From a virus (lineage: Duplodnaviria; Caudoviricetes), in IMG/VR virus record IMGVR_UViG_3300000942_000002, positions 1-64,000 of that record: a DNA stretch of 64,000 nt, one strand, 5' to 3'. A program made the translations under genes and the position numbers. Positions 1 through 44,800 of the stretch are shown here, one piece after another (positions within the stretch are counted from its first letter, which is position 1; each line of letters begins with the position of its first letter). Below the pieces are notes generated by a model that did not search any database, was not told the DNA's origin, and saw only the letters and a list, made by a program, of their open reading frames with translations.

Positions 1-58
1 TCACATTTTAACTTAATTACTATCTCTTAAAGTAAAAAGAGTAATTAGTGACACTAAA

Positions 59-78
59 AATTAGTGAGGGTATTGAGT
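59..78 (-). promoter_or_regulatory. Conserved 20-bp early-cassette motif, copy 1 (candidate phage/virion-RNAP promoter)
   Basis: + strand aattagtgagggtattgagt; 19/20 identical to the copy at 513-532; lies just downstream of a terminator and would precede a gene beyond the left edge. Confidence 0.6.
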
Positions 79-91
79 TAAGTTTTGTAAC

Positions 92-124
92 AAAAGAAAA
101 AGAGAATGCCTAATAGACACTCTC
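92..124 (-). terminator. Intrinsic terminator after 154..447
   Basis: Minus strand GAGAGTGTC-TATTA-GGCATTCTC followed by TTTTTCTTTT. Confidence 0.75.
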
Positions 125-153
125 CTAATCCTAACCTAAACAAACTACAATTA

Positions 154-447
154 TTATAGCGTAGTCTCCGCTGGAGAATACTTAACTATTCTATAAGCTG
201 TATACTCTCCCTGATCACCTTCTCTGGTTTCAGTTTGAATACCTAATGAGCTAATATTGGCATCAGCCTTTAACTCACCCACAAGCTCTTTGTGAATAGA
301 TACTGCAACACGATTATCATTATCCCAGTGGCGCATCCAATCAGTTGGATTCCCTTCTCCATCATTTGCTGTGTTTAACTCTAATTGCTCAATTCCTACT
401 TTTTCTTTAATTTGATCTAATGTCATCTTACTATAGTTTTTAGACAT
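154..447 (-). CDS. Small early-type protein, paralog A (97 aa; alternative start at Met8)
   Basis: 66/90 aa identical to 583..855; own upstream motif and downstream terminator. Confidence 0.9.
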   Translation of the reverse strand: MSKNYSKMTLDQIKEKVGIEQLELNTANDGEGNPTDWMRHWDNDNRVAVSIHKELVGELKADANISSLGIQTETREGDQGEYTAYRIVKYSPAETTL

Positions 448-512
448 AATGTGGCAAAATCGCCAGCTTATCTACCCTAATAAAAATAAAAAAGTAAATA
501 AGTAATACTAAT

Positions 513-532
513 AATTAGTGAGGGTTTTGAGT
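513..532 (-). promoter_or_regulatory. Conserved 20-bp early-cassette motif, copy 2
   Basis: + strand aattagtgagggttttgagt, 65 bp upstream of the 447 start. Confidence 0.65.
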
Positions 533-545
533 GGAGTTTTAAGGG

Positions 546-574
546 AAAAAGAGAAAGACCATTTCTGGTCTCTC
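546..574 (-). terminator. Intrinsic terminator after 583..855
   Basis: Minus strand GAGAGACC-AGAAAT-GGTCTTTC followed by TCTTTTT. Confidence 0.75.
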
Positions 575-582
575 CCCTAATA

Positions 583-855
583 CTATAGTGTCTCCTCTGC
601 TGGAGTGTACTTCACAATTCGGTATGCTTTATAAGGTCCTTTTGTTCCTTCTCTATCCTCAGACTGAAGCCCTAATGAGCTGATGTTTGAGTTAGCTTTG
701 ATCTCAGCTACTAATTCCTTGTGGATGCTAACAGCAACTCTGTTGTCATTGTCCCAATGTCTCATCCAATCTGTTGGCTTATCCTCTTTGTCCTTAGCTG
801 TGTTAAGCTCTAATGCTGGAATCTCTAATTGGTTTTTGATCTGTTTAAGTGTCAT
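583..855 (-). CDS. Small early-type protein, paralog B (90 aa)
   Basis: Paralog of 154..447 with invariant core PTDWMRHWDNDNRVAVSIHKELV despite synonymous DNA changes. Confidence 0.9.
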   Translation of the reverse strand: MTLKQIKNQLEIPALELNTAKDKEDKPTDWMRHWDNDNRVAVSIHKELVAEIKANSNISSLGLQSEDREGTKGPYKAYRIVKYTPAEETL

Positions 856-895
856 AATACTCGATTTAAGTTATAGATTGATTATTCAATCCAAT

Positions 896-915
896 AATAA
901 GTTAGGGTTTTGAGT
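896..915 (-). promoter_or_regulatory. Conserved 20-bp early-cassette motif, copy 3
   Basis: + strand aataagttagggttttgagt; 18/20 identical to copy 2; 40 bp upstream of the 855 start. Confidence 0.65.
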
Positions 916-928
916 TTGGCCTAATATA

Positions 929-953
929 GAATAAAGGAGAGCTATTGCCCTCC
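929..953 (-). terminator. Intrinsic terminator after the 28-aa micro-ORF
   Basis: Minus strand GGAGGGC-AATA-GCTCTCC followed by TTTATTCT. Confidence 0.65.
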
Positions 954-962
954 AATCCTAAT

Positions 963-1049
963 CTATCTATGAATAGCATGACTACATGCTGGTGCCCATT
1001 CCTTTAGGAACTTGTGAACTCTCTTGATCACTTTCTTTACTCTCTTCAT
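963..1049 (-). CDS. 28-aa basic microprotein MKRVKKVIKRVHKFLKEWAPACSHAIHR (not in ORF track)
   Basis: ATG-to-TAG frame with AT-rich leader, directly followed by a terminator. Confidence 0.5.
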   Translation of the reverse strand: MKRVKKVIKRVHKFLKEWAPACSHAIHR

Positions 1050-1085
1050 AATATAATGTATTAATAGGTTAAACGCTAATAGAGC

Positions 1086-1123
1086 AGCAAAGTACAACAA
1101 CAACTCTGAAGTTGTACTTTGCT
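1086..1123. other. Perfect 13-bp inverted repeat (hairpin) between two micro-ORFs
   Basis: agcaaagtacaac (1086-1098) / gttgtactttgct (1111-1123), 12-nt loop. Confidence 0.7.
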
Positions 1124-1133
1124 TTTCATACTT

Positions 1134-1232
1134 TTACTCACACACTTGAGTCCAGAGAACTTTGACATTCTCTCCAGTGTTCTGCATGTCACACACTGCT
1201 GCTTGCATTGCTTTGCTTTCCATTTTACTCAT
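1134..1232 (-). CDS. 32-aa microprotein MSKMESKAMQAAVCDMQNTGENVKVLWTQVCE (not in ORF track)
   Basis: ATG-to-TAA frame downstream of motif copy 4, AT-rich leader. Confidence 0.45.
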   Translation of the reverse strand: MSKMESKAMQAAVCDMQNTGENVKVLWTQVCE

Positions 1233-1315
1233 CTTGTATAGTATTAAGTTATTATTAATGCTCCCAGAAATTAATTCGTTTCAGAACTTTGGTAGGGGGA
1301 GTTTTCCTTTCCAGA

Positions 1316-1335
1316 AATGAGTGGGGGTTTTGAGT
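1316..1335 (-). promoter_or_regulatory. Conserved 20-bp early-cassette motif, copy 4
   Basis: + strand aatgagtgggggttttgagt; 18/20 identical to copy 2. Confidence 0.6.
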
Positions 1336-1339
1336 AGGG

Positions 1340-1850
1340 TAGTTTACACTCTCACAGAGCACATAAAAAATTTTTTCCTGGAAATTTTTTTGGGCAGCTA
1401 ATTATTGGCACTATATGTAGATTAGTGACGAATTATAGATTTATTTTTTTATAGTCATTATAGTGGTTATTTAGTAAACAGATATGTTTACTTTTTATGG
1501 GTTTTGTATACATATAAGTTTACACGTATATAGAAAATCCAATAACCTTTACATATAATAGATTATACCTTATCGCATATAATTTAAGGTAAAGTACAAT
1601 GTTTTATATGTTATCGGGTATAATGGGAAGTTTGAGTTCTACTAAAAGAAAGAAAAGAACCAAAAGAAAGAAAACTTTATTGTACTTCCCTTCTCTATAT
1701 TTATGCCTGCTGGCTAAGATTTTCTCCTGCACGCAGGAAAGAAAACTTTCTTTGTCAAAGGTATATGTTTCTGATCACAAAGTCAAGTAATCTGGATATA
1801 TTATTTTTCTATAGGTAAGTACATCTATATAGAAAAAATTTATAGTCTTT
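1340..1850. other. AT-rich divergent intergenic region with several inverted repeats
   Basis: No convincing CDS; IRs agtaaaca/tgtttact (1473-1492) and tttttctata/tatagaaaaa (1804-1837); gene orientation switches here. Confidence 0.5.
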
Positions 1851-1852
1851 AG

Positions 1853-1883
1853 TTTGGTAGTATTAATATTTTTATTAATTTTG
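1853..1883 (+). promoter_or_regulatory. Bacteroidota primary-sigma promoter (-33 TTTG / -7 TAnnTTTG) at the start of the virion module
   Basis: TTTG 1853-1856, 19-nt spacer, TAATTTTG 1876-1883, 22 nt before the first + strand ATG. Confidence 0.7.
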
Positions 1884-1905
1884 CTTCAGATAAAAATGAA
1901 ATAGT

Positions 1906-2229
1906 ATGATTGAAGAATTTTTGAAAGAGTTAAGAGACTCGGCAGATATACAGTTTAAGATCTTTACAGAAGGAAGTTGTTTTAGATTATACAAGATACT
2001 AAAGGTAGTATTTCCAGAAGCCAAAGCATACTGGTCTGATTTAGACAACCACTGTATAACAAAAATTAATGGAGAGTTTTATGACATTGGTGGGGCCGTG
2101 AAAAAGTCTTACATTAAAGATAGGTCTTATTACAAGATTCGTAAATCACAACTGAAAGGTTATTCTATTTTGAAATGGATGAATGATGAAGAGTCTATAG
2201 GAGCTAAAATTGAAAAATATAAAAACTGA
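1906..2229 (+). CDS. Hypothetical protein with conserved Cys/His/Asp pattern (papain/transglutaminase-like candidate)
   Basis: FTEGSC...FP...HC...YDIGG; paralogous to 3943..4227. Confidence 0.8.
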   Translation: MIEEFLKELRDSADIQFKIFTEGSCFRLYKILKVVFPEAKAYWSDLDNHCITKINGEFYDIGGAVKKSYIKDRSYYKIRKSQLKGYSILKWMNDEESIGAKIEKYKN

Positions 2230-2600
2230 TGCAAGTAATCACAAATGTAATCAAAGGAGACAAGTTCACCTACTACATTAAACACCTAGAGATATTGAAC
2301 ATCATACTTCCAGAGAAGAGTTTCCCAGAGAAGCTTACGAACAAGGAAGTTGAAGTTTTGGCTGCATTTATGTACCAAGATAAAAATTTGATCGAAGAGG
2401 ACATGTTTAATGGAGTGGTCCGTAAGAAGGTTATGGAGAAGCTTAGTCTTAAACCTGGAGGTCTTGGGAATCATATTAAATCTATGATCGACAAGAAATT
2501 TCTGGTAAAGAATGAACTAACTAGAAAAATTTCAGTAAAAGAGTTTTTAATTCCGGAAGAGAATAACCAAGGGTATAGAATTAAACTAGTAAAAGAATGA
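2229..2600 (+). CDS. Putative winged-helix DNA-binding protein
   Basis: LTNKEVEVLAAF...RKKVMEKLSLKPGGLGNHIKSMIDKKFL pattern; translationally coupled. Confidence 0.6.
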   Translation: MQVITNVIKGDKFTYYIKHLEILNIILPEKSFPEKLTNKEVEVLAAFMYQDKNLIEEDMFNGVVRKKVMEKLSLKPGGLGNHIKSMIDKKFLVKNELTRKISVKEFLIPEENNQGYRIKLVKE

Positions 2601-2848
2601 GACACCAATTAGGAATAGTAGCAAGTCTAGCATATGATATGACTTTACAAAGAGAAGATTATGGAGCAAAAATAGAAGTAAGTGAAGATGTTATAGAGTG
2701 GTTAGGACTGCATGATTCTAAATTAGATGAGAATGGATCTCGTATTTATATCTGCAACGCAATAGAATATATTTATTTAGGTCCGGTACCTGAAGTCAAA
2801 AAACTCCCAATTGATTTCTTTAACCCTGGTAAAGAGAATTTAGCATGA
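2597..2848 (+). CDS. Hypothetical protein
   Basis: Coupled ORF (ATGA overlap) in operon. Confidence 0.75.
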   Translation: MRHQLGIVASLAYDMTLQREDYGAKIEVSEDVIEWLGLHDSKLDENGSRIYICNAIEYIYLGPVPEVKKLPIDFFNPGKENLA

Positions 2849-3165
2849 TATTAAAGAATGACGAGTTATTGCATGAATTTTATGCGAGAGAGGGCCATAA
2901 GTATCCGGATTTAAACCTGGAGCAGTTTAAGGACATTGTGTTCACACCTTGGGTATTTTTACGTAAGGAAATGGAATCAGGAGAGCTGGGAACAGTTAGG
3001 ATGAAGTATTTTGGCACTTTTCAAGTGTATGAAGGTAGAGCTCGAAGAATGTTAACTAATATCAATGAAAGATTAAAGTTCAATAAAATAGAGCCTTCGC
3101 AGTATTTTAAGTTGAAAGACATGTTGGAAAAATTCTTAAACAAGAAAGATGGCAAGATTAATTAA
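2845..3165 (+). CDS. IHF/HU-like DNA-binding protein
   Basis: GTVRMKYFGTFQV beta-ribbon pattern typical of HU/IHF; crAss-like genomes carry such genes near the terminase. Confidence 0.6.
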   Translation: MILKNDELLHEFYAREGHKYPDLNLEQFKDIVFTPWVFLRKEMESGELGTVRMKYFGTFQVYEGRARRMLTNINERLKFNKIEPSQYFKLKDMLEKFLNKKDGKIN

Positions 3166-3346
3166 CATGCTAGTGGGGTACAAAAACCTGTTGACAGGGA
3201 AAGAAACTCCACAGGAAGAAAAGAGACTAAAGAAGTGTGGGAGATGTCCTCACCTCAAGAAAACTAAAGTATGTGGCAAGTGTGGCTGCTATATGCCTGC
3301 AAAGGTCAAAGCTCCACAAGCACGTTGCCCAATTAAAAAATGGTAA
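3149..3346 (+). CDS. Small Cys-rich (Zn-binding, DUF6171-like) protein
   Basis: CGRCP...CGKCGC...K...CPIKKW. Confidence 0.7.
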   Translation: MARLINMLVGYKNLLTGKETPQEEKRLKKCGRCPHLKKTKVCGKCGCYMPAKVKAPQARCPIKKW

Positions 3347-3349
3347 ATT

Positions 3350-3943
3350 ATGGCATATAAGCACACAAAAGTAAGAAATTACAGAGCACAAGAATTACTA
3401 GACAGAGTGAAATGTTTAGAATCATTTAAAGGGTTTCCACCTCAATATTGGATCCTGGGAGTACAATCTAAAGAAGATACATACAATCATTTTGATGATA
3501 AGTTCTATCTGTTTAGAGGAGAGAAGTTTATAATGGTAGTGACGGGCACCACGAATGCCGGGACGACTGGACTGATGAATTACGAGAAGTATAACAAAAA
3601 CGGAGTGTTGGTTGTTAAGACGGATGAATGGTATCATGGCCTTTGGAAGTATGGATTACACCGAGGGAAGATGCCAGCTCTAAGACAGATTAGACCTATT
3701 AAGTATTTCCGGGATTGGAACAAAAATAGAAAGATAGAAGAAATTGGGCCAGTAAGAAAAGGTATAAAGGGAATCAATTTCCACACAGTTTTGTATCAGA
3801 AAAATCTATCGTTTATCAGAAGATTGATTGGAGGCTGGAGTGTTGGTTGCCAGGTAGTAAATAATGTAGGTAAATACTATAGACTTTTAGATAAGGTGAA
3901 AAATCAGAAGTATGTTACATACTGTTTAATAAAAGAATTCTAG
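3350..3943 (+). CDS. Putative endolysin, L,D-transpeptidase (YkuD)-like Cys peptidase
   Basis: GINFH...WSVGCQVV catalytic-type motif; basic protein; no signal peptide. Confidence 0.6.
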   Translation: MAYKHTKVRNYRAQELLDRVKCLESFKGFPPQYWILGVQSKEDTYNHFDDKFYLFRGEKFIMVVTGTTNAGTTGLMNYEKYNKNGVLVVKTDEWYHGLWKYGLHRGKMPALRQIRPIKYFRDWNKNRKIEEIGPVRKGIKGINFHTVLYQKNLSFIRRLIGGWSVGCQVVNNVGKYYRLLDKVKNQKYVTYCLIKEF

Positions 3944-4227
3944 TGAGACAAATACATGAAATAGAAAATTTTATCAGTATAATAAGAGATTCTGTACCAA
4001 ATGCAGTTGAAGTATACACTAGAGGAAACTGTACTTCTTTTGCTAGAATATTAGAGATAACCTTCCCCGGAGGAAGAGTAATGCATAATATAAGTCATGC
4101 TTGTTACAAATATGCTGGACTTTGCTATGATATTACAGGTAATATTAAAGAACCAAAAAATTCCAGACCTATTGAAGATTTTGGTATTAGACAAATTATG
4201 ACTTTAACTAAAAACAATTATAAATAA
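3943..4227 (+). CDS. Hypothetical protein, Cys/His/Asp paralog of 1906..2229
   Basis: YTRGNC...FP...HA...YDITG. Confidence 0.8.
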   Translation: MRQIHEIENFISIIRDSVPNAVEVYTRGNCTSFARILEITFPGGRVMHNISHACYKYAGLCYDITGNIKEPKNSRPIEDFGIRQIMTLTKNNYK

Positions 4228-4799
4228 TGGCCTTCCTATTTAAAGTAACAGAAAAAACAGTTTTTCCAAATGAGGAAACTCTTCTTATTGAACCTTTCAA
4301 ATCTATTTGGTCCAGAGATAAATCAAAAGATAAATATAATGCCTTGGAAGAATTTGCTTATATTGAGTTTATGTCTTCTATGAAAAAGAGTAACCCTTAT
4401 AGACAGTATGGGGAAAATATGAAAGAAGAAAAAGTGAGACAAGCAGTTATTACCCGGGAAGATTGGGTACCAGATGAGTTGATCATACAAGCTATACATA
4501 AGGTAATGCAGTTTCAAAAAGAAGCTTCAACAACCTACAATTACTATATGGCTGCAAAGAAAGCTGCTGAGAAAATGCAGGAATTCTTTGAAGAGGTGGA
4601 CATCACAGCAGTGAACCCCAAGACATTTAACCCTATCTATAAACCTAGAGATATAACTAGTGCTTTAAATGACACAGAAAAAGTATTAAGTAACTTAAAA
4701 AGTCTTGAGAAAAAAGTTGAAGAAGAATTGTATGAAGAAACAAAGAATAGAAGTAATAAAGAGATTTCTTTCTTTGCAGATCCAGAAAGTTTAAAGTAA
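4227..4799 (+). CDS. Conserved protein directly upstream of the terminase; candidate terminase small subunit
   Basis: Position, helical and coiled-coil C-terminus; function is inferred. Confidence 0.45.
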   Translation: MAFLFKVTEKTVFPNEETLLIEPFKSIWSRDKSKDKYNALEEFAYIEFMSSMKKSNPYRQYGENMKEEKVRQAVITREDWVPDELIIQAIHKVMQFQKEASTTYNYYMAAKKAAEKMQEFFEEVDITAVNPKTFNPIYKPRDITSALNDTEKVLSNLKSLEKKVEEELYEETKNRSNKEISFFADPESLK

Positions 4800-4800
4800 T

Positions 4801-6963
4801 ATGACAGAATATAACAGTGGTAAATTAGAAGAAGTAAAAAATCCAGATGGTACTTGGATAAATTCTCAGGCTTTTAGAGAAGCTGGTAATCATTTTATGA
4901 AACATAGGTATTATATAGCTGATCCTTGGGGAACTCCGGATTGGCTTACCTATTGGAAAAATGAAAGAAAAAAGTGTATTGAAGGAGTAGAAATTGGTGG
5001 AGCTAGAATAACCGGAGAACACTATTCTTATTTGAATTACACACCTATACAAAAAGTAGGAGAGATATCTGGAAATAAAGCAAGTAAAGTGAAAGGATTT
5101 CCGGATTTCTGGGATGGAGATTATAATTATTTTTGGGTCAGACAGATAGCTAGAAATGGAATAATAGATGCTCTACTTAATGACGAAGAGAAAGAACTTG
5201 TTGTGAAAATGGACGACAAGAAGAAAGCTCTTGAAATGAAAAAATTATTTGAGAGTTTAAATCTTTACGTAGAAATAGAAGTAGACTACCTCACTGGAGG
5301 GTATAATTTGATTGTAGGTAAGAGTCGTCGTAAAGGATATTCGTACAAAGCTGCTGCAATTGGATCAAACAATTACTTTACAAAGCCTTTTTCTCTGACA
5401 ATTTTTGGTGCTCATGATAAAAAATATCTCTATCCAAATGGTATTTTTGGTATGGCATACAATAATATAAACTTCATTAATGAAAACACTGGCTGGGCCA
5501 TGCCTTCAGATGTTATTGACAGACTAGGTTCCGGGCACATTAAGTCTTCATACATACAATACAAAAATGGTATTAAATTAGAAAAAGGGTTTAAATCTGA
5601 GTTGTTGGCATTAACTTTTAAAGATAATCCAGATGCTGCCAGGGGGAAAGATGCTGAAGAAGTTTTCTTTGAAGAATCAGGAGCCTTTGGTACCCCGGGT
5701 CTTTTAAAACAATCCTACAAAGCAACTGAAGATTGTGTTATGGCCGGAGCAATAAAAACAGGATTAATAACTGTGTTTGGTACCTCTGGGGATATGGGAG
5801 GAGGAACAGCAGATTATGCAGATATGTTCAGTAGACCTCAAGCTTTTGATTTACTCCCATTCAAGAATATATGGGATGAGGATAGCCGAGATATGAGTGT
5901 TGGTTTCTTCCACCCAATTAACTGGAACATGGAAGGTTTCTATGATGAGCAAGGGAATTCGGATAAAGAAGGAGCCAAGAAACTTGAGCTTATGACAAGA
6001 GACAATCTAATAAAACATGGAGCAACCTCAGCAGAAATTCAACAAAGAATGCAAGAAAAACCTTTAGGTCCTAGTGAAGCCTTTGCTACTGTTTCTGTAA
6101 ATAACTTCCCTGTCGTTGAATTAAAAAGGCAATTACAAAAGGTAAAAGGCAAAGGTTGGCAGATGACAAAAGGGACTCCAGTTAATATATACTATAAGGA
6201 TGGTAAGATTGTTGCAGAACCTATTATGGATGGAACAGCAAATCCAATTACTAGCTATACAAATGTTCCCCAAGATCTTAGAGGATGCCCAATGATTTAT
6301 GAACAACCAATTTCAAATCCTCCTCAAGGTTTATATAAAATTGGTTATGACCCTATTAGACAAGATCAAGGTAGTTCTTTAGCTGCTATAGTTGTTTATA
6401 AAAGTCATCATATTGGTACTCAACATCACGATATTATTGTAGCTGAGTATATTGGTAGAATGGAGACTGCTTCAGATATTGATAGAATTGCAGAGATGTT
6501 TGCAGATTTATATGGAACAAAAATCATGTATGAAAATGAAGTAGTGGGAGTAAAGACATATTTCCAGAAGATTAAAAGATTGAATTTACTTGCAGCTCAA
6601 CCTGACAGAGTTATTAGTAAAAATATCAAAACTTCAAAAGTGGCAAGAGTTTATGGATGTCATATGAATCAACAACTTAAAGATGCAGGAGAAAGATATG
6701 TTAAGGATTGGTTACTTACAGTTTTAGATTATGATGAGAATGGGAATAAGATTACTGTTATAGATAAGATTTATTCTATAAGAATTTTAGAAGAGTTAAT
6801 TGCTTATAATAGAGATGGTAACTTTGATGCTATATCAGCTCTTTTCATGTGTATGTTTCAAGTAGAAGAAGAAGTGTTAGGAAAGCAGTTTGGAGATGGT
6901 GGAGAAAATAAAAAAGCAAAAAAACTTTTGGAAATGATGAAAAATATGTATAAAAAGAATTAA
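4801..6963 (+). CDS. terL: Terminase large subunit
   Basis: Walker A-like GKSRRKGYSY, Walker B VFFEESG, RNase H-like nuclease motif KIGYDP, C-terminal NFDAISA. Confidence 0.95.
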   Translation: MTEYNSGKLEEVKNPDGTWINSQAFREAGNHFMKHRYYIADPWGTPDWLTYWKNERKKCIEGVEIGGARITGEHYSYLNYTPIQKVGEISGNKASKVKGFPDFWDGDYNYFWVRQIARNGIIDALLNDEEKELVVKMDDKKKALEMKKLFESLNLYVEIEVDYLTGGYNLIVGKSRRKGYSYKAAAIGSNNYFTKPFSLTIFGAHDKKYLYPNGIFGMAYNNINFINENTGWAMPSDVIDRLGSGHIKSSYIQYKNGIKLEKGFKSELLALTFKDNPDAARGKDAEEVFFEESGAFGTPGLLKQSYKATEDCVMAGAIKTGLITVFGTSGDMGGGTADYADMFSRPQAFDLLPFKNIWDEDSRDMSVGFFHPINWNMEGFYDEQGNSDKEGAKKLELMTRDNLIKHGATSAEIQQRMQEKPLGPSEAFATVSVNNFPVVELKRQLQKVKGKGWQMTKGTPVNIYYKDGKIVAEPIMDGTANPITSYTNVPQDLRGCPMIYEQPISNPPQGLYKIGYDPIRQDQGSSLAAIVVYKSHHIGTQHHDIIVAEYIGRMETASDIDRIAEMFADLYGTKIMYENEVVGVKTYFQKIKRLNLLAAQPDRVISKNIKTSKVARVYGCHMNQQLKDAGERYVKDWLLTVLDYDENGNKITVIDKIYSIRILEELIAYNRDGNFDAISALFMCMFQVEEEVLGKQFGDGGENKKAKKLLEMMKNMYKKN

Positions 6964-6968
6964 CTTTG
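6961..6968 (+). promoter_or_regulatory. Candidate -7 element (TAACTTTG) before the portal gene
   Basis: Matches TAnnTTTG, 16 nt before ATG; no clear -33 element. Confidence 0.5.
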
Positions 6969-6984
6969 TAAAAAATTTGATTTA

Positions 6985-9426
6985 ATGGAGGAAAATAAAA
7001 CTAAGCCTAAACAAAATGAAAGGTTAAGTATTACTAAGAAGAATGCTAATAAAAAACAATGGTATAAAGATAAAGCTAACGAGCTCGATGCAGAGCACAA
7101 TGGTTTAACGATTTCTTATGGTGGAATATCTGACTATAAGAGGATGAAAGTTAATTACAATTTGTTTAACAACATTTTAGACCTTCAGGACTTTGAATAC
7201 GTATGCAAGCCATTTGGTGCAGAGGCAGGAGAACTTCCAGCAACTATGGTGAACAGGGATATCTCTTCTGGAAAGATAAAAGCTCTTTTAGGTATGGAAA
7301 TGAAGAGACCTTTTTCTTGGAGAGTTATAGCAACAAATTCAGAAGCCACTACAAGAAAAGAACAAGAAGAATTTGGGCAGATAAAAAACTTTGTGATCTC
7401 GGAAATTCTAGGGCCGATTAGGACAGAAATCGAAACACAGGTTGCCCAGGAAAATGCAGGTAAACAACTATCTGAAGAAGAGATGGCCGGGATTCAACAA
7501 AGAATCCAAGAAGAGTTAAATGCAAGAACTCCAGATCAAGTTAAAAAATATATGGAGAGGGAACATCAAGATCCCTCTGAAGTAATGAGTCATCAATTAT
7601 TAGAATACCTTATACAGAAAACTGATATCAGAAGAAAATTTAACGAAGCTTTTAAACACCTTAGTCTTTCAGCAAAAGAGGCTATGTACATAGGTATATT
7701 AAATGGCCACCCTGAAGTTTGGAATGTAAACTCCTTGAGAATAAATCCTAAACTATCAAGTATTTCTCCTTTTATTGAAGATAGTGAAGCTTTATCTGTA
7801 GAATATAGAATGACTCCTTCCGAGATTATACAATATTTTGGGGATGAATTATCTACAACAGAAATTGATAAGATATACTCTGAATATATAATGAGTAATT
7901 CTGAAGATGATCTTTTTGATATTGCAGAAAAAAATGATTCTCTTGATGGAGAGTACAGGGATTATTCAAATCTAAGAGTGGTCCACACTATGTGGAAAGC
8001 TCTTAGAAAATTAGCTTTTCTTACTTATTTAGATGAGAATGGTAAGGAGCAAATGATGATCGTTGATGAAAAGTATAAACTAGATGAAGAAGCTGGGGAT
8101 ATAAAAATAGAGTATGAGTGGTTACCAGAATCTTATGAAACTTGGAAAATAGGTCCAGACATTTATGTAAACATGAGGCCTATCCCAGGACAGTTCAAAG
8201 ATTTAGACAACCTCCACAATTGTAAATTTCCTTACTATGGAGTTTATGTAGATGATATGAACTCTGTCCCAACTGCCCCTATGGATAGATTAAAAGTTTA
8301 CCAGTATTACTATAACATAGTAATGTATCGTCTAGAATTACTTTTAGCCTCAGATAAAGGTAAAAAAGTAATGATGAATATAAATGCTGTGCCAGATAGT
8401 GCTGGGATAGATATAGAAAAGTGGCAATACTTTTTTGAAAGTTCTCCATTTATGTGGTTTGACCCAAATGAAGAGGGGACTGGATATGCTGATGTTAACA
8501 CAATGGCAAAGACTATTGATCTTTCTTTGGCATCTGATATTGGTAAATACATAGAATTTGCAGAGTACCTTAAAAGACAAGCTGGAGCATCAGTAGGAAT
8601 TACAGAAGCTGTTGAAGGTCAGGCAGGTCCTGGAGACTCTGTTGGGAATAATAGACAAAACTTAATACAAACTTCAAACATACTTGAACCGTATTTTGAT
8701 ATTCATAATTCATTTAAAAAGAATGTTTTAACTGCTCTCATTGAGACAGCAAAGATTGCTTATTCAAACAAAAAGTCTGTGAAGCTTTCTTATGTTTTAG
8801 ATGACATGTCAGTAAAAACTTTTGATTTAGATGTAAATCTTTTAGATAATTCTACACTAGGCCTGTTTGTTGCAAATTCTACAAAAGCTGAAGAAGCTAT
8901 GCAAACAATTAGACAATTAGCTCATGCAGCAATGCAAGGGCAAAAAGCAGAGTTATCTGATATTCTTTCTGTGATCAGACAAGAAGGTATAGTGGAAGCA
9001 GAAGAAACTCTTAAAGTAGCAGAGAAAGATAGAAAAGCTGAAGAGCAAGCTATGCAAGATAAAGCTGCTAAACAACAACAAGAACTTGAAAAACTTCAAC
9101 AACAAGGTAAACAACAAGAGCATGAAAATGAAAAAGAACTTATTGTTCTTAAAGAAACTGAAAGAAGAAAAACTGTTGTAGCTCAGTCTGCTCTTACTGG
9201 AATGTCTTTTAACCCTGATACTGATAATGACAATGATGGCGTTAATGATTTCTTAGAAGTAGCTAGACATGGTGTAGACGCTGAGATCAAAAGAGGTAAG
9301 AATCAGTTAGACAGAGAAAAATTTGAACATCAAAAAGGGGTTGACAAGGAAAAACTTAAGATAGAAAAGAAAAAAGCTGATAACCAAGTCAACAAAGGAA
9401 ATAAAGGAAACGCTATTACACACTAA
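6985..9426 (+). CDS. Portal protein
   Basis: 813 aa following terL; helical, coiled-coil C-terminus; crAss-like synteny. Confidence 0.88.
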   Translation: MEENKTKPKQNERLSITKKNANKKQWYKDKANELDAEHNGLTISYGGISDYKRMKVNYNLFNNILDLQDFEYVCKPFGAEAGELPATMVNRDISSGKIKALLGMEMKRPFSWRVIATNSEATTRKEQEEFGQIKNFVISEILGPIRTEIETQVAQENAGKQLSEEEMAGIQQRIQEELNARTPDQVKKYMEREHQDPSEVMSHQLLEYLIQKTDIRRKFNEAFKHLSLSAKEAMYIGILNGHPEVWNVNSLRINPKLSSISPFIEDSEALSVEYRMTPSEIIQYFGDELSTTEIDKIYSEYIMSNSEDDLFDIAEKNDSLDGEYRDYSNLRVVHTMWKALRKLAFLTYLDENGKEQMMIVDEKYKLDEEAGDIKIEYEWLPESYETWKIGPDIYVNMRPIPGQFKDLDNLHNCKFPYYGVYVDDMNSVPTAPMDRLKVYQYYYNIVMYRLELLLASDKGKKVMMNINAVPDSAGIDIEKWQYFFESSPFMWFDPNEEGTGYADVNTMAKTIDLSLASDIGKYIEFAEYLKRQAGASVGITEAVEGQAGPGDSVGNNRQNLIQTSNILEPYFDIHNSFKKNVLTALIETAKIAYSNKKSVKLSYVLDDMSVKTFDLDVNLLDNSTLGLFVANSTKAEEAMQTIRQLAHAAMQGQKAELSDILSVIRQEGIVEAEETLKVAEKDRKAEEQAMQDKAAKQQQELEKLQQQGKQQEHENEKELIVLKETERRKTVVAQSALTGMSFNPDTDNDNDGVNDFLEVARHGVDAEIKRGKNQLDREKFEHQKGVDKEKLKIEKKKADNQVNKGNKGNAITH

Positions 9427-35871: not shown

Positions 35872-38800
35872 ATGGATGAATTTCAAATCAAAGTACTAGA
35901 AGCCAACGGATATTCTTATGTTGATGGAGGTATAGTAGATGCAGAGGGAAATTATATTTCCTCTGTTGAGTTAAATGGAGAACTGTATAATTCTGAATCA
36001 GATCAGGATTTATGGAATAGAGGACAAGCTTTAGAAAGAAAATATTCAGAGCCTGTTGATCCATATAAAAACTTAAAAGAATTTGAAAAAGATCCTCTTA
36101 ATACTGTATTAACAGAAGAGGATAGAAATTTTTACCCATTGTATTCTGAAGAACAAGAAGAGAATGATATTCCTACTTATGATAATGTAGATATTTTTCA
36201 GAAGGAAATGGAAGATAAAGCTATTCAAGAAAGTGATAACACTTATTTTGAGATGCTTAGACAATTTCAAGAAGCAGGACATGATAACATCACAGATGAA
36301 TTTATAAATGAGAATAAAAGAAATGAATCTGTAATTAAAAAATATCAAAATTCTGATAAAGATGTGGATACCATTATGCAAGATATTCTTGATGAAGGCC
36401 CGGTACCTCACACTCCAGACCCTAATGATAATGCTGTGATAGCTTATCTGAAAGATCCAAATAGAAATGTATTTACTAGGATGGGAGATTGGATGTGGGA
36501 AAGAATCTACAGTGGGATTGCTCATGTTACTCCTACTGGTGTAGGTATGGATGGTACTGAGGAAGAGATTCAAGAATACAAAGATGCTGTCACAAAAAGA
36601 AAAGAACTTCAAACACCTGTTCTAGAGATAGTTGATTCTATGCATGAGCAAAAGCAAAAGGTTTTACAAGATCAGTGGGATAATATGTCTTTTGCTGAAA
36701 AGTACAATCCTTTTGACAGAGAAAATAGACTTGTTGAATATGGTCTAGGAGAAGTTAATGCAGAAAGAGATAGAATAAAAGATTACGTAGAAGGTAGTCA
36801 TATATACAATCCTCTAAACAAAGATTTCTTAGGAGATTTTGCTACACTAGGTATAGGAGATGCTTATGATATGTATTTTTACAATTCTTACCTACATGAT
36901 AAAATAAATAAAGGGGAGGAGCTAACTGAAAAAGAGCAGTTAGTTGCTGAGACCTTGGCCGGAATACATCAATCTAAAGGTGTAAAAATGGATCAGAAAG
37001 GTCTTTATAACATTACTGCTGGGACATTTGAAAGTGCTTCTTTCTTATTAGGAGGGGCACCAGGTAGATTAGCTTTAAGAGGAACAACTAAAGCTATTAC
37101 TAGAAACGTTGCAAAATCTTTATCTGGGGCTGGTATGTCTACAGGGACAGCAAATGTTTTTGGAAAGGTTGCTGGAGAAACAGTAAATATGTTTGGTCAA
37201 GCAGTTCTTCATCCTGATGCTCATGTTAAAGCTCTTAATAAGTACTATGGTGATATACAGTTTGATAAAAACGATAAAGGAGAAATTGAACTAACTACAG
37301 ACAGAAGGACCTATAAGACATTAATGGATGAAGTGGAAATCAATCGAAACAGAATTGAAGATGCTTTGGCAAAAGAAACAGACCCAGAGAAAATTGCACA
37401 GCTTAAAACTCAATTAAATAAAATTGAAGATTATAGTGATAGTATCAAAGCTCCTGAAACGGTATTTGATTCTGCTGCTTATGGACTAACAGAAGTCTTA
37501 AAAGAAAATGTAATCGAAAATTATGGAGGGCAATTAGCAAATAAAGTTGTAAACAATAGGTTTACTAAAAAACTAGCTACAAAACCTTGGGCTCAATCTA
37601 TAGCTAATTCTGGGGTTGCACAAAATATTAAAAAAGCAAACAATCTTTTTGGTAGTGTAAAAAATAAATTCAATACATTAACAGGCAATAAAGGATCCAA
37701 ACTTGTAGGAAATAATTTGGAAGAGATGGCTGAAGAAGTAATGACTCAGTTAGTACCTGTTTGGGGAGAAACAGAAGAAGAAGCGAAGCAAAGAAAAGGA
37801 GAACTTTTAGAAGGAAGTTTTTATGGACAAGTTGCAGGTCAAACTCTATTGATGGGGGGATTGATGAAGGCTTTATATTCACCTCTTTCTGGTTATCAAG
37901 CTTATCAGAAATCTAAAAACTTAAGAGATAAAAGAAAAGCTTTTAAGGACATGATCTCTGATTTTAATAAAGAGAATATATCTGATTCTCAAGTCGAAGA
38001 ATTATTAATGTCTGCCGGAGAAGGAAATTTCTCTATCCAAGAATTTGATAACAAAATTGCAAAATTAAGAGATAAAGGACAACATGATAAAGCTAATGAA
38101 TTAGAGAGAAATAAAGTATTTAATATTGGGAAATCTTTAGTATCTATTGGTAGAGGAAAAGAGTTCGTAAGAAATATGAATAATGTGATATCTTCTGGGA
38201 ATGTTACCCCAGAAAGTATTGCTAGTATTCAAGAGGCAGTACAAGAAGTAAAAGTTCTTGAAGCTGATATGAAGGATCACGGAAATTTAAAAAACAGAGA
38301 TTATGTTCTAGAATTAAAATCAAAACTAAGATATAATCAAAAACAAAAAGAAAATCTTGAAAAAAGGAAGTCTGAACTTAATGGCCAAGAGCAATCTCAA
38401 GAAAGAGATGCAGAAGTAGATGCAATTGATTTGGCTCTTAAAGATATAAATAATCATGAAGGTCAGTTAAAGAAAGCTATCAATCATGAGACTTCTTCTA
38501 AAATGGTAGATAAGCTAAGAAAAGAGGAAGAAGTGACAAACTCTATTATCAAGGAGTATAGAAAACTTGTTAAAGAGAATGATGCTACAGACTCTTCTGC
38601 TCTAAGAGATAAGGCTATTGAAAACACAAAACAAAAGTATGGCAAGACTATCAGTAATGGTACTTATTCAAAATCAATTAAAGATGTAGATAGATACTTA
38701 CTGAAAGAGACTTTAAGAGAGGAAATAGCTTTAGAACAAAAAGAATCTAAAATTGAAGCTCAAATTGAGGAGGTAACTCCGGAAAAAGAAGAGACTCAAA

Positions 38801-41800
38801 AACATGTTGAGGAAATTGGACAAAATGTAGATCAAGTAACTGAGCTTGCAGAGCAACAGGAAATAAGCTTTCAAGCCCCTGATAATAAGAAAGGTGTGGA
38901 TGATTTAGATTATGCTGGTCCAGCTTTTGATCCAGATGTAGAAACAGATTCTTTTGAAGATATAGATGATGCTTTCTTTGATGATATGCCGGTACAGAAA
39001 GATGGTTCTTTTGAAAATCAAGCTTTTAACAATTTAGTAGAGACAGTAAAAAATAGAGTAAATCTAATTGAAAAAAGAGATAAGACTAAGCCCTCTTTCA
39101 AAGATTATGTAGAGGATCTTATTGACAATGGGGATGTTCCTATTGAAAATTTCAGAGGTCATATGAGAGCTTTAGCCTTGGCTTGGAGTGGGGCCAAACT
39201 AGGTAAGACTAATTGGAGACAATTATATAATGAATTATTTGAAGACACTCAAGCTGTACTTAATAGAAAAGAAAATCAGAATACTTCTGAAGCTATAAAA
39301 ACTCCTCAAATCGAAGAGGTACAAGAAAGAAGTGAAGAACAAGTAACTAATAAGAATAGTTTAAGTGAGCCTATAAAATATGAAGAAACAAGTGGAGCAC
39401 CAGTTCATGTGACTCCAAATTCTAATAAAACTTATGGTACAGAACATAAGCTTAACTTTTCTGCTATAGAATATAATGAAGTAATTGAAAATGTAAATGG
39501 AAAGAAAGTTTTTCGTAAAATAAATAGTCCTATACCTAAACTAAATGAAAATAGTGGTGTATCGTTTAAAGATTTGGTAAATCCAAATAAGAATAATATT
39601 GGAGATAAGCTTTTTCCTGAAGTTTTAGATGGAGAAGATTTAGCTAACACTTCTGTAGCTGTCAGAGATAAATATGGAAGACAAACTGGGACTATTACTT
39701 TTGCAGAATGGGTAGAAGGAGCTAGACCAGAGGGGATGTCTTTTGAAGCTTTTCAACAAACAAGAGAATACAAAGATAAAGTTCCTATGGTCTACAGGGA
39801 CTCTCAAGGTACTGCTGTAGCATATGTACCCGAGGTAGAATGGTTTAGTGTTACTTCTGTAGGTGATAGCACAAAAGATGTGGATGAAGTAGATCTTGAT
39901 AACCCAAGTGAAAGTCTTAGAAAAGATATTCAACAGAATAGAGAACAAGCTTCTAACTTGAGAGAGGAAGTTATAAATGGTACTATTGAAGAGGTAGAGA
40001 TTATTGATAATCTTTCTTTTCCTCCTTTACAAAAAATTGCAAAATCTGATGATAACGGAGTTCCTATACCTACAAAATCTTTAAGTGAAGTTGCTCCAGA
40101 TAGTCAGATAGTTTGGATGAAAGCTTCTGGTACCATTGTAGATATGAATGGTAGAACTATAGAGATGGAAAATATTTTAAACTTGGGGGATGAATCTGAA
40201 GGGTTCTTGATGACTAAAGTTATAGAAGAAGATGGCATAAAAAAGAAATTACCTATCAACAGAAACCGTACTCATTATTTAGTTCACACTGCCACTATTT
40301 CTGGGGTAAAAAAATATATAGCTCTTAATGTCCAAAGAAAAAATGAAAATGGATTAGATTCTGCTTATTCAGAAGATATTGAAACAGCTAGGTGGATTGC
40401 TGCTATTAACAATGTCACCAAATTCCATGATACAAACTCAGGTAGTGAAATACTTACCAATAGTTCTCACCCTCTTCATATGTCTTTAGAACAAGCTGAG
40501 GACTTGAGAAGACAAATAAAAGAAGTTACAGGGACAGATGTTAAATCTAAATACACTGATCTAATAGAAGCTCTTATAGCTTACCAAACACCAGACAAAG
40601 ATGGCCAGGTTGGGCAGAAAATTACTTTTGGTAGTGAACTAAGTAAAATACTAAGAGCTTATAATAAAGATACAGGTAAGTTTAAAAATGCAGATATTAA
40701 TTTTAGACAAAACACTTCTTTAAGAATGTTGAATAAACCTATGATCAAGATAGCAAAAACTGAAAATGGTTTTGTTGTAGAAAAGATTGCAGATTCTTAT
40801 GATCAACACTTAAAGAATAGATTGTCTACAAATGTGATGGGGTATAATGTTGGAACAAAAGAAAATCCAGTGTACACTATTGCAGTTCAGCAAAAAGTTA
40901 AAATTAGACCTCTTTCTACTAAAAAAGAAACTTTAGAAGAAAAAGTAGAAGAGAATAAACAGGATACACAAGTTCAAGAAAAAGTTGTTGAAGTAGAAAC
41001 TATTGAAACTCCAGGAGAACTAACTGAAGATCAAAAGCAAAAGAGAAAGCAATTAGTTGAAGAAGCTACTGCTTTAGCAAAAGAATTGAATTTAGATATT
41101 AGAGGTATCAAGGAGATAGATGATCTTATTGCCTCAGAATTAACTACTACAGAAAATGTAGACAACTCTATTCTTATTACTGAAGGTCTTACTATTAAAC
41201 AAGAAGAAGATATAATCAAATGGTTATTTAGTAAACTTGCAAATAAAGAAACTAATTTTCAAGAAGTTAAAGAAGATTTGAATAAAGAATTTTCAAGTAA
41301 AGCAGACAAATTAGCAACATCTATTTCAAACCTTAATGAATTTAAAGATAATGAGGTTGTGGACAATTTGATTACTACTTTAGAATCTGCATTAAGTCAA
41401 ATAGAAAATGCTTTGGAGAATTCTGATAGTCTTCTTGCTGAAGCTTCTATGAGAGCTGTTAATACTTCTTTTATTACTGATGAGTTTGAAGTAGACGAAA
41501 TAAACGAAAATATAAAAGATTTTAGTAAAGCTAGTAATGAAAACAAACCTATTGATAAAGTAGGTACTGCTTTGAAAAGAATTTTTGCTCAAGTTACTGA
41601 TGGTAGTACCGGATTTATGGGGTTAGATACTTATGCTTCTTTTAAACAGATGTATGATACAGTTTCTTTAGCTTTATCTAGTGATTCTAATCTTGAACCA
41701 AATTTTAATGAGATGATAGCTCTCTTAAGAAAAAGAGAAAATTCAACACCTTGGATGAAACCTTTAATTGAAAGATTAGAGCAAGCTGATGACCAAGTAA

Positions 41801-44800
41801 AAAATCAATTTGTATATAATACCTATAAACAAAAAGTTTATGCAAAATTTGCAACACTTACTTTTGATAATGATGGAGGAGTAAACAGTAACATTTATGA
41901 TAGTAATTCTAATGAAGCAAAAAGAGCTGTAGTAGATAGATGGAGAGAAAATTTTAAAAGAGCTCCTATCAATAAAGAAGGAAAAATTGATACAAAAGTT
42001 CTTAATAAAGTTGTTGAAGAATGGAACAGTTGGTTTGATTCTGGGACTTCAAATCAGAGTGATACTACTTATAAAAATTGGTTAAGTAACTTTGGAATAG
42101 AATTATCTGACTCAACTTTCACAGCATTAAGAAATGGAGAACTTAATATTTCTGAAGGTGGGGGTAAATTGAAAAAAGCTAGATTCAAAGATCTATTTGA
42201 AGGATTAACTGGGAGTAGCTCAAAAAACAGAACAGGTCTACTGTTTACAAACCTTATGAAATATTCTTTGATGAACAAGGATAAACAAGAGGTAGAGTTC
42301 TATGACAATATAAAAAATCATCCTTTTGAGGATATGAATACTATCTTAAGTCAGTTGGCTGAATTAGAAGTAAAATATAATCCTAGTTATGGTAGTACCT
42401 CTAGATATATTTCTGGAAAAAGTGTAACAGAGATTGAGTCTTTTAATTATTTCTATGAGCAGTTTAAAAAATTAAAAAGTTCCTCTTTAAGTGAGGATAA
42501 AGCTTATCTAAAAGATTTAGAAAACCTAAGTTTTAGCCAAGACTCTTTTCTTTTAAAAATGCTTAAAGAAGATGATGTGTTTGCAAATCAATTTGGGCAT
42601 GGTCTAGTTGATCTAATGTCTTTAAAAGAACTTTATAAAAAGTCTCCAATGTTTGCAGGCATTGATGAATTAAGTTCTATTGATTATATGTTTGCTCAGA
42701 GAGCTATGTTCCAAAATAGGAATCAAGGAGCTGAAAAAGAAGTAATTGGACTTCCTTTTGAAGTTAGAATGGCTCACATGAATACTTTAACTAATTCTGA
42801 TAAAGGAAGAATGATGTTGTTGAAAACTGCTGTATTTGATTTCTATAAACAATCAGAAGCAGCTTTCGAGATTAATGAAGAAGGAGATATAAAATTCAAA
42901 GAAGACCTAAACAATTTACTTTATGATAATTTAGTGGTACCAGAATTGAGAAGAATGGTCAACTTTATCACAAATGTGAAAAACACAAACATAAAAGGAT
43001 ATGATAAAGGAGCAGTCCGTTTTAATCTTATCCCTGGTATTAATACTTTAACTGATAAGAAAGGAAGAAGTGTTTCAGAATTAATTTCAGTTATTGAAGG
43101 AAAGTCTCAAGAAGAGATAATGGAAAATGTGAAAGAAATATTTGGTGCAGATATTTCTACTTTTATACAAGATAATGTTATTAAAGAAGCTTTAGATAAT
43201 GTTAAAGATCTAAATCAGTTTAATAGTAAAATAGATGGTTTCAATAATGCAGAATATTTAAAGCAAAGAAAAGGTACTGTTGACGAGAACATGAAGATTG
43301 CCGAGTTAGATTTTATCTTAAATTCTATGTTGACAAATATGAATTACATGCAACTTATGACAGGGGATCCAGCTCTTTATTATAAATCTAAAGGAGATGT
43401 GAAATCTAAAGACCTTAAAGCTCAAACTAAAATTTCCCAGCAACTAGCTATCAACTTAGGGAAGAGAATGGCTTCTATGATAGCCCCAGGGAGTGTGTTA
43501 GCTGATTCAAATAATAATTCTTATCTACAAGTATTCCTTGAGGACGTTAATGGAGTAGCTGACAATATTTTAGATATTGTCGAATGGCATTATAGCAAGA
43601 AAGAATTAAATGAAAAGCATGGTAATGGACTTACGTATAAAGAAATGTTTGAATCTTCTAAAAAAGGTAATAGAGAATTTATTGATTTATTATCTGAAAG
43701 ATTTGAAAGAGTTGCGGAGTTTATAGACATTGAGAGCACTGATGCACAAGAGTACACAACTCTTAATGAGCATATATACGTTATGTTGAAACAAGGAAGA
43801 ATTTCTGAAGATAAATATAAAACTATCCAAGATAAAATAAAGAAAGAAGAGGATTTAACAAAAGAGGAGTTAGACTTAGTATTGCAGCCTATTAAACCTG
43901 TTTATACCGGAACCATTTATGATTCTGAACAAGATGTTAATAGAATGATGTATATCAAGTCTTCTTCTTTCCCTCTTATACCTCAACTAACAAAAGGTAG
44001 AAAGTTGGATGATCTTAGAAAAAATATGGAAGAAGTTGAAAAAGTATACAGCACCACTGTAAGAGCTTCCTATCAAACAGCAAATAAGGTTGGGGCTTTA
44101 ACTTCTGAGAATACTATAAAAGATTTTTCACAACCTATAGTAGACAATAATATCATAAAATTAGAAAGAGCTCATTTTAAAATACAACAGGATGTTCCTT
44201 TTAAATCAAAAAAGGTTCAAGATGACACTGTCTCTATGGGTACTCAAATATTTAAACTTTTGATGGGAGACGGTATAATGGATATTGATGGATTTGAATT
44301 TGAAGGCCAAGAATATAATGGTAAAGAATTACAAAACAAATTCCACGAAATATTTAAAGATATGGTTTCTCTTAAAAGAGACAAGTTTCTAGATTCTCTA
44401 GGGCTTAATGCTGATATGAGTGCAAAAGACCCAAAAGAAACTATTAAGAAGCTGCAAAAACTTCTTATTAAAGAAGCAAAAAGTAGAGGGTTCTCTAAAC
44501 AAGATTTAAAAATACTTTCTCTGGTAGATAATGGACAAGGAGAAATGACTTTTAAATTACCTCTTTGGTTAACAGGAAATAGTAACAAGTATGAATCTAT
44601 GTTGAATGCTCTTATAAATAACAAAATATTTAAGCAGAAGCTGCCGGGGAATAAATTTGTTACAGGATCAGAAGCAGGGTTTGATGTATCAGAAACTACT
44701 GAAGGTATTGATGAAAGCAGAATAATTCATGTGGGAGATTTTGAAGGGGGTGTACTACAAAGTACTAGAAAGCAGGATAAAAGCATATCAAAAGCTCAAA

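Follow-up and report, generated by a model that had tools for sequence, protein, structure and literature searches.

A conserved linear motif at the head of the leftward arm of flavobacterial crAss-like phages, a candidate promoter of the virion RNA polymerase

How the giant RNA polymerase injected by crAss-like phages finds its start sites is an open question. It is addressed here at the left end of IMG/VR record IMGVR_UViG_3300000942_000002, a linear virus of 89,011 bp; bases 1-64000 of this record are called the window. A motif of about 27 nt with the consensus TCAAaACCCtCACTaATTnnT(A/G)G occurs there in four copies among small minus-strand genes. Judged by its conservation and its surroundings, this motif is very probably a promoter, and it is the best candidate for the signal at which the RNA polymerase injected by these phages would start. 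The full statement, namely that the motif is a phage-specific promoter of the earliest units and is read by the virion polymerase, is given a probability of roughly 55%.

The source of the record is a flavobacterial crAss-like phage. PHROG matches were obtained for terminase, portal, major head protein and a 1937-aa crAss-type virion protein, and also for ribonucleotide reductase and GroEL; among cultured phages, those of the FpV4 group, from Flavobacterium psychrophilum, are the closest relatives (TerL identity 59%). The plus-strand arm (1906-53059) carries the structural genes and the polymerase, and the minus-strand arm (89011-53372) the replication genes. A divergent control region of 570 bp (1906-1336) lies between the arms, and the four motif cassettes form the head of the minus-strand arm. 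A nucleotide search with this region against GenBank phages gave no match.

The initial annotation had placed four copies of a 20-mer at 59, 513, 896 and 1316. A scan of the window with the degenerate 20-mer ACTCAAWACCCYMACTHATT returned exactly these four, all of them intergenic and on the minus strand (59-78, 513-532, 896-915 and 1316-1335, called copies 1 to 4). Copy 1 differs from copy 2 at 1 position, copies 3 and 4 at 2 positions each. At ≤3 mismatches 0.19 matches were expected in shuffled sequence, and four matches were reached by 0 of 100 shuffles. The rest of the 89,011-bp record contained no copy at ≤4 mismatches, and the 9-mer TCAAWACCC had no other occurrence in the whole record. 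In the order of the minus strand, the copies and their cassettes are as follows.

1309-1335, minus strand: motif copy 4, the first in transcription order (20-mer extended to the conserved R-G at motif positions 24-25)
1134-1232, minus strand: 32-aa open reading frame (ORF), first gene of unit 1, with a 34-aa counterpart at the same place in contig L005
1086-1123, minus strand: inverted repeat of 13 bp (perfect, 12-nt loop) separating the 32-aa from the 28-aa ORF and lacking a following T run
963-1049, minus strand: 28-aa ORF, second gene of unit 1, weakly conserved
936-953, minus strand: terminator-like hairpin and T run, end of unit 1
889-915, minus strand: motif copy 3
583-855, minus strand: 90-aa protein, presumably early, of a strongly conserved family (142 relatives)
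549-578, minus strand: terminator-like hairpin (13 pairs) and T run, end of unit 2
506-532, minus strand: motif copy 2, holding AACCCTCACTAA
154-447, minus strand: 97-aa paralog of the 90-aa protein
100-126, minus strand: terminator-like hairpin (12 pairs) and T run, end of unit 3
52-78, minus strand: motif copy 1, the last in order, whose transcription unit exceeds the contig end

The order of terminator, motif and gene is thus directly observed. A terminator scan of the minus strand found 4 candidates as compared to 0.9 expected, and 3 of them (126-100, 578-549 and 953-936) adjoin motif copies. Copies 1 to 3 had been described as lying just past a terminator, and copies 2 to 4 as lying upstream of a small minus-strand ORF; measurement agreed on both points. 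The gap from the end of the terminator stem to the motif is 21, 16, and 20 nt at copies 1, 2, and 3, respectively, and copies 4, 3, and 2 precede the ATGs at 1232, 855, and 447 by 83, 40, and 65 nt. At least 142 proteins from environmental contigs, 89-98 aa in length, make up the family of the 90-aa protein. The best 120 of these are 55-84% identical to it, and judged from those 120 the conservation of the family is comparable to or above that of TerL across the clade. No Pfam or PHROG match was found for the 90-aa protein.

The search in relatives proposed by the initial annotation was then carried out. Using TerL (58-91% identity), 80 IMG/VR loci were retrieved, and a position matrix was refined on them and used to scan more than 35 related contigs with a total of about 1.1 Mb (TerL identity 58-100%), the cultured phage FpV4 among them. 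The matrix gave 134 matches on the early-arm (minus) strand vs 2 on the opposite strand and 1-3 in reversed-sequence controls. A position 2.9-9.8 kb upstream of TerL is common to all matches but one, which recurs in three contigs that are nearly identical. Almost all loci with more than about 4.5 kb upstream of TerL carry 3-7 copies, and most loci without matches have none because that upstream DNA is missing from the contig. A motif scattered without positional bias had been named as the outcome that would speak against a promoter; instead, a single cluster upstream of TerL on one strand was observed.

Individual genomes follow the same pattern. FpV4 has 5 copies on one strand (record positions 379, 262, 3, 87794 and 83696), three at the head of the arm and two further along. 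In five complete or near-complete relatives, as in FpV4, good copies (0-1 mismatch) form one cluster on one strand; the complete relatives usually have 3-4 copies within 1.5 kb and one more 3-7 kb beyond. Matches with 2 mismatches outside the cluster were few in these relatives and remained at control level. Two contigs found through the 97-aa protein hold four or five copies each in the same arrangement. Furthermore, 18 metagenome contigs retrieved via the 90-aa protein gave 65 matches on the gene strand and 0 on the opposite strand, and one copy always lies 33-90 nt ahead of the gene for the 90-aa protein. Transcript-like contigs, whose ends might indicate start sites, were looked for in this metagenome scan as well; ordinary DNA contigs were obtained. 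A diverged motif, ACCAGACAACCCCATC, is present five times on the minus strand of the GC-richer contig L064 (TerL 60% identical; 3160-6425) at the same place and in the same orientation, a variant that would fit the drift expected of a co-evolving polymerase-promoter pair. In contig L023 (positions 1-8000; TerL identity 78%), the motif is missing from the 10 kb that precede TerL. This region of L023 contains internally repeated stretches that look coding, and the order of the arm may differ there.

The anatomy of the element was determined from 112 unique sites. In detail, the consensus reads TCAAaACCCtCACTaATT, two weak T positions, T(A/G)G, and a loose A-rich/T-rich stretch. C9, C10, and C15 are invariant and position 11 is C in 111 of the 112 sites; A5, A6, A8, A14, and A18 are each conserved to more than 94%, T19 to 89% and C13 to 83%, and G25 is found in 81 sites. 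Information content peaks at positions 3-27 and drops to background on the left of position 3 and beyond about position 27. The tails of the upstream terminators make positions -20 to -12 rich in T. A strict terminator-like hairpin was found 15-39 nt upstream of 33 sites, as compared to 14 of 360 random positions, and in 31 of these 33 sites the distance was 15-26 nt. The end of the motif lies at a median of 56 nt from the next ATG-led ORF; at 9 sites no ORF follows within 600 nt, and two of these, both in FpV4, precede long unannotated stretches. The coding strand is nearly free of G up to the purine-G at positions 24-25, which would be the likeliest start site. Since the terminator lies so near upstream, a further promoter would find no room between the two. 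Of the structural arguments for the motif itself being the promoter, this is the main one.

Repeats of this kind may also arise without any role in transcription, as remnants of tandem cassette duplication or as recombination sites. Among the four cassettes, two do hold paralogous genes, copies 1 and 2 are similar over as much as 58 nt, and the copy number varies from 3 to 7 among relatives. These three features would fit duplication of whole promoter-gene-terminator units. The suggestion of the initial annotation that the repeats may allow gain or loss of cassettes by recombination would likewise be compatible with the varying copy number. As an explanation of the motif itself, however, mere duplication is very improbable: the genes after copies 3 and 4 are unrelated, the motif is near-invariant down to 58% TerL identity while its flanks are randomised, and in complete relatives further copies lie 3-7 kb farther along the arm, including the two in FpV4 that precede unannotated DNA.

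The stems that overlap copies 1 and 2 had been likened to the hairpin promoters of phage N4. An N4 promoter takes the form of a hairpin in the single-stranded template, with a stem of 5-7 bp and a loop of 3 nt, and the virion enzyme of N4 is a T7-like single-subunit polymerase. The stems at copies 1 and 2 do exist; however, they are weak (-3.3 and -1.3 kcal/mol in a DNA fold), copy 3 folds elsewhere into a different hairpin and copy 4 gave no fold. Among the 112 sites, no hairpin of these dimensions was conserved at a fixed position, and all five stem pairs were complete in only 4 sites. There is no covariation, because the Watson-Crick combinations at each pair equal the expectation from column make-up. 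An N4-like hairpin was therefore rejected. The apparent stem arises because the conserved blocks ACTAAT and TTAGT are complementary by chance in some copies. The resemblance to N4, whose early promoters P1-P3 are read by the injected virion RNA polymerase (PMC4496689), lies elsewhere: a handful of copies unlike host promoters heads an early region of small genes, and a capsid-delivered polymerase is the reader, which is a proposal only in the present case. In contrast to N4, the signal here is not defined by a hairpin, and the sole candidate enzyme is a two-barrel DFDID polymerase and not a T7-like one.

The motif might also act other than as a promoter, either as the operator of a regulator or as an RNA-level processing or antitermination signal on a long transcript from an upstream host-type promoter. 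Copy 2 holds the perfect palindrome ACTAAT-T-ATTAGT, which has the form of a dimer site, and the whole array lies downstream of a host-type promoter. Additionally, a conserved 26-nt motif of the Thermus phage P23-45 marks termination sites of the virion polymerase (10.1101/2022.12.01.518664). Against this, few copies have the palindrome, the element lacks symmetry and keeps strictly to one strand, and conserved RNA structure or covariation was not detected. With terminators 15-26 nt upstream, transcripts from further upstream should miss most copies; the first copy stands ahead of the first gene and is unfit for the role of a terminator. We consider such a function improbable.

A third explanation involves the host. 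The primary-sigma promoter of Bacteroidota consists of a -33 TTG and a -7 TAnnTTTG. Promoters of this class are likewise present in the phage genome, where -7 boxes precede the late-arm genes at 1906, 9485 and 20271. Two host-type elements lie in the control region.

1756-1786, minus strand: leftward host-type promoter (TTG, 20 nt, TACCTTTG), separate from the motif
1876-1883, plus strand: rightward host-type -7 element TAATTTTG, 22 nt ahead of the first plus-strand gene (ATG 1906)

The leftward promoter is located 421 nt upstream of the first motif copy. About 14 of 30 related lineages have conserved it in the form cTTGAc...TAaCTTTG, 210-430 nt ahead of their first copy. As stated by the initial annotation, the motif itself is unlike these promoters: its consensus has neither the -33 TTG nor the -7 TAnnTTTG, its best-conserved bases (CCC and CAC) fall into the would-be spacer of a two-block sigma promoter, and no minus-strand TAnnTTTG occurs in positions 1-1335 of the window. 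In bacterial and archaeal genomes totalling 596 Gb, the 18-mer consensus was found in only 26 scattered stretches (25 single, one double), of which 2 belong to Flavobacteriia. A host promoter class was rejected, as no enrichment of the consensus was seen across 185,579 species genomes.

The motif could nevertheless be read by the host RNA polymerase together with a phage factor, either delivered by the virion or made early, or with a minor host sigma factor; the units would then be delayed-early or middle. The conserved leftward promoter just upstream of the array could provide the first transcript. In phage phi14:2, middle and late promoters are read by the host and show an extended tripartite motif (10.1101/2020.03.07.982082). 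Domain searches, moreover, routinely miss small phage specificity factors. On the other side stand the make-up of the motif, its lack of enrichment in Flavobacteriia genomes and the failure to detect a sigma domain in the phage. Likewise, no convincing ORF for a factor was seen in the stretch of 421 nt (down to 1336) that separates the leftward promoter from the first copy. We regard reading by the host polymerase as rather unlikely. The stretch in question may encode a small RNA; an Rfam search with it gave no match.

Which enzyme would then read the motif? The sequence by itself cannot name it. Other phage-encoded readers were looked for beside the virion protein.

35872-48585, plus strand: virion protein of 4237 aa carrying DFDID at residue 3068, an RNA polymerase of the crAss type and candidate for reading the motif

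The assignment of this protein as a polymerase, already made in the initial annotation, was supported by tblastn: the DFDID region matched the RNA polymerases of crAss001 (3e-9) and crAss002 (2e-8) and other crassvirus RNA polymerase regions down to 7e-22. The protein had no Pfam or Protein Data Bank (PDB) sequence match, and motifs B and C of T7-type polymerases were not found in it. Sigma70_r2 and Sigma70_r4_2 domains were not found in this genome, and by these domains no phage sigma factor was detected. The T7-like RNA polymerase domain PF00940 was found neither in this genome nor in that of complete FpV4, in a search that likewise gave no match in the control genomes. The remaining large ORFs encode rIIA/B, DNA polymerase, helicases, primase, and ligase. 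As no sigma factor gene and no T7-like polymerase gene was found, the virion polymerase is the only identified candidate reader.

The search for a T7-like enzyme bears on a peculiarity of the motif. CAC-T-A is the core common to promoters of the T7 group. The promoter of phage T3 reads AATTAACCCTCACTAAAGGG in the literature, and 12 consecutive bases of it, AACCCTCACTAA, are identical in window copy 2. Like the T7-group promoters, the motif is a contiguous signal (about 23-27 nt), and its near-invariant CAC-T-A matches their core. It differs from the T3 promoter in that its conserved purine-G is placed 4-5 nt downstream of where the T3 start site would fall. It differs from the T7 group in that no gene for a cognate single-subunit T7-like RNA polymerase was found here or in FpV4. 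A hidden T7-like polymerase as the source of the T3-like core was also sought among the other large ORFs and not found, these being replication or rII proteins. The resemblance to the T3 core may be coincidence or convergence; in a genome with no detected T7-like polymerase it is a curiosity.

A parallel for a linear signal comes from phage P23-45, in which a conserved linear motif lies upstream of 14 mapped starts and was proposed by the authors to be the promoter of a virion two-barrel polymerase (10.1101/2022.12.01.518664). Its pre-early promoters are AT-rich and assigned to the virion polymerase gp96 (10.1101/2022.12.01.518664). The motif occupies the earliest region, as ours presumably does, and like ours it is common to relatives with a virion polymerase; the enzyme, like our candidate, belongs to the two-barrel class. 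The two motifs are unrelated, the one of P23-45 being AT-rich and the present one having a C-rich core; furthermore, the P23-45 polymerase is fused to the tape measure protein of a Thermus siphovirus. The promoters of P23-45 are backed by cappable-seq and chromatin immunoprecipitation sequencing (ChIP-seq), whereas those described here are known from their sequence.

Phage phi14:2 is similar in the family of its polymerase, in its small early genes and non-coding stretches and in middle and late promoters that are read by the host. The phi14:2 study, the only experimental one on the question, observed only non-specific transcription, and of denatured DNA (10.1101/2020.03.07.982082). Our full-text literature searches retrieved no description of the motif or of any crAss early promoter. 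Since the work on phi14:2 found no common early motif, the promoter class proposed here is undescribed in the literature covered.

From these observations, the following course of events is proposed. The motif, about 27 nt long, contiguous and free of conserved secondary structure, would act as a phage-specific promoter. It would start each of the first leftward units, and each unit would end at an intrinsic terminator 15-26 nt before the next copy. Transcription would begin at or near the purine-G at motif positions 24-25. The units headed by the motif would be the earliest genes of the phage, and the crAss-type RNA polymerase delivered with the virion would read them before any phage protein is made.

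Several points weigh against this proposal. In phi14:2, early transcripts are made by the virion polymerase gp66 with no common motif upstream (10.1101/2020.03.07.982082), and our motif gave only 2-mismatch matches at control level in that phage. The host-type leftward promoter is present in about half of the lineages, so that the host polymerase may also enter the arm. Phage sigma-like factors and activators often escape Pfam, and their absence is weak evidence. The record is rated 92% complete. Finally, promoter activity, start site, early timing, and the identity of the enzyme have all been deduced indirectly.

The first copy in transcription order has features of its own. In all 27-31 genomes examined, it takes the CCCCC form of the core and is flanked by two further elements, placed in the window as follows.

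1336-1392, minus strand: upstream extension found at the first copy only, an A-run/T-run tract followed by the box GTGAGAGTGTAAACTACCCT (consensus of 31 first copies)
1295-1299, minus strand: second C-box, invariant, located 28 nt downstream from the first copy's CCC (C37-C39 shared by all 27 sequences)

The upstream box of the first copies reads tGAGnGTGTGA. The second C-box may be a degenerate tandem half-copy, and the first copy may be a tandem or reinforced promoter. RNAalifold predicted no conserved pairs in the leader of the first copy, and GG...CC stems seen there by eye were dismissed because they were not in register.

Additional observations were made along the arm. A hairpin equivalent to that at 1086-1123 also occurs in contig L005. 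Many small genes of the arm share the A/T-rich context cttaatacattatatt-ATG (window 1050-1068 and 856-873; L005 5540-5560 and 7860-7883), which is perhaps a translation-initiation signal. A transfer-messenger RNA (tmRNA) gene was detected by Rfam (58 bits) on the minus strand of contig L014 (1948-2362), corresponding to positions 81947-82361 of FpV4 (NC_041872.1). In FpV4 it lies in a 2.3-kb stretch with no annotated feature in RefSeq, 1.3 kb downstream of the fifth motif copy; in contig L079 (168-572, minus strand) a tmRNA lies 0.6 kb downstream of the distal copy. A link between distal copy and tmRNA was dropped, as the tmRNA is found at 0.6-1.3 kb downstream in FpV4 and L079 and not in the other relatives. 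The ends of nine independent contigs or records fall 3-503 nt past a motif copy on its downstream side, namely those of the window at position 1, the FpV4 record at position 1, and contigs L067, L068, L017, L027, L025, L093, and L050. Past its last motif copy, the DNA of L005 is not similar to this genome. A hypervariable region or a physical end of the genome may lie next to the array.

We see even odds that the motif represents the first promoter class of a crAss-type virion RNA polymerase to be defined by sequence. It would be a linear signal, about 27 nt long and T3-like in its core, recognized by a single-chain two-barrel enzyme with neither a sigma factor nor a hairpin. The motif is spread through a large clade of environmental Flavobacteriia phages. 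As a sharp signal in FpV4, which can be cultivated together with Flavobacterium psychrophilum, it offers a concrete template for in vitro initiation assays. It would also be useful for structures of initiation complexes and for the annotation of early genes in metagenomic crassviruses.

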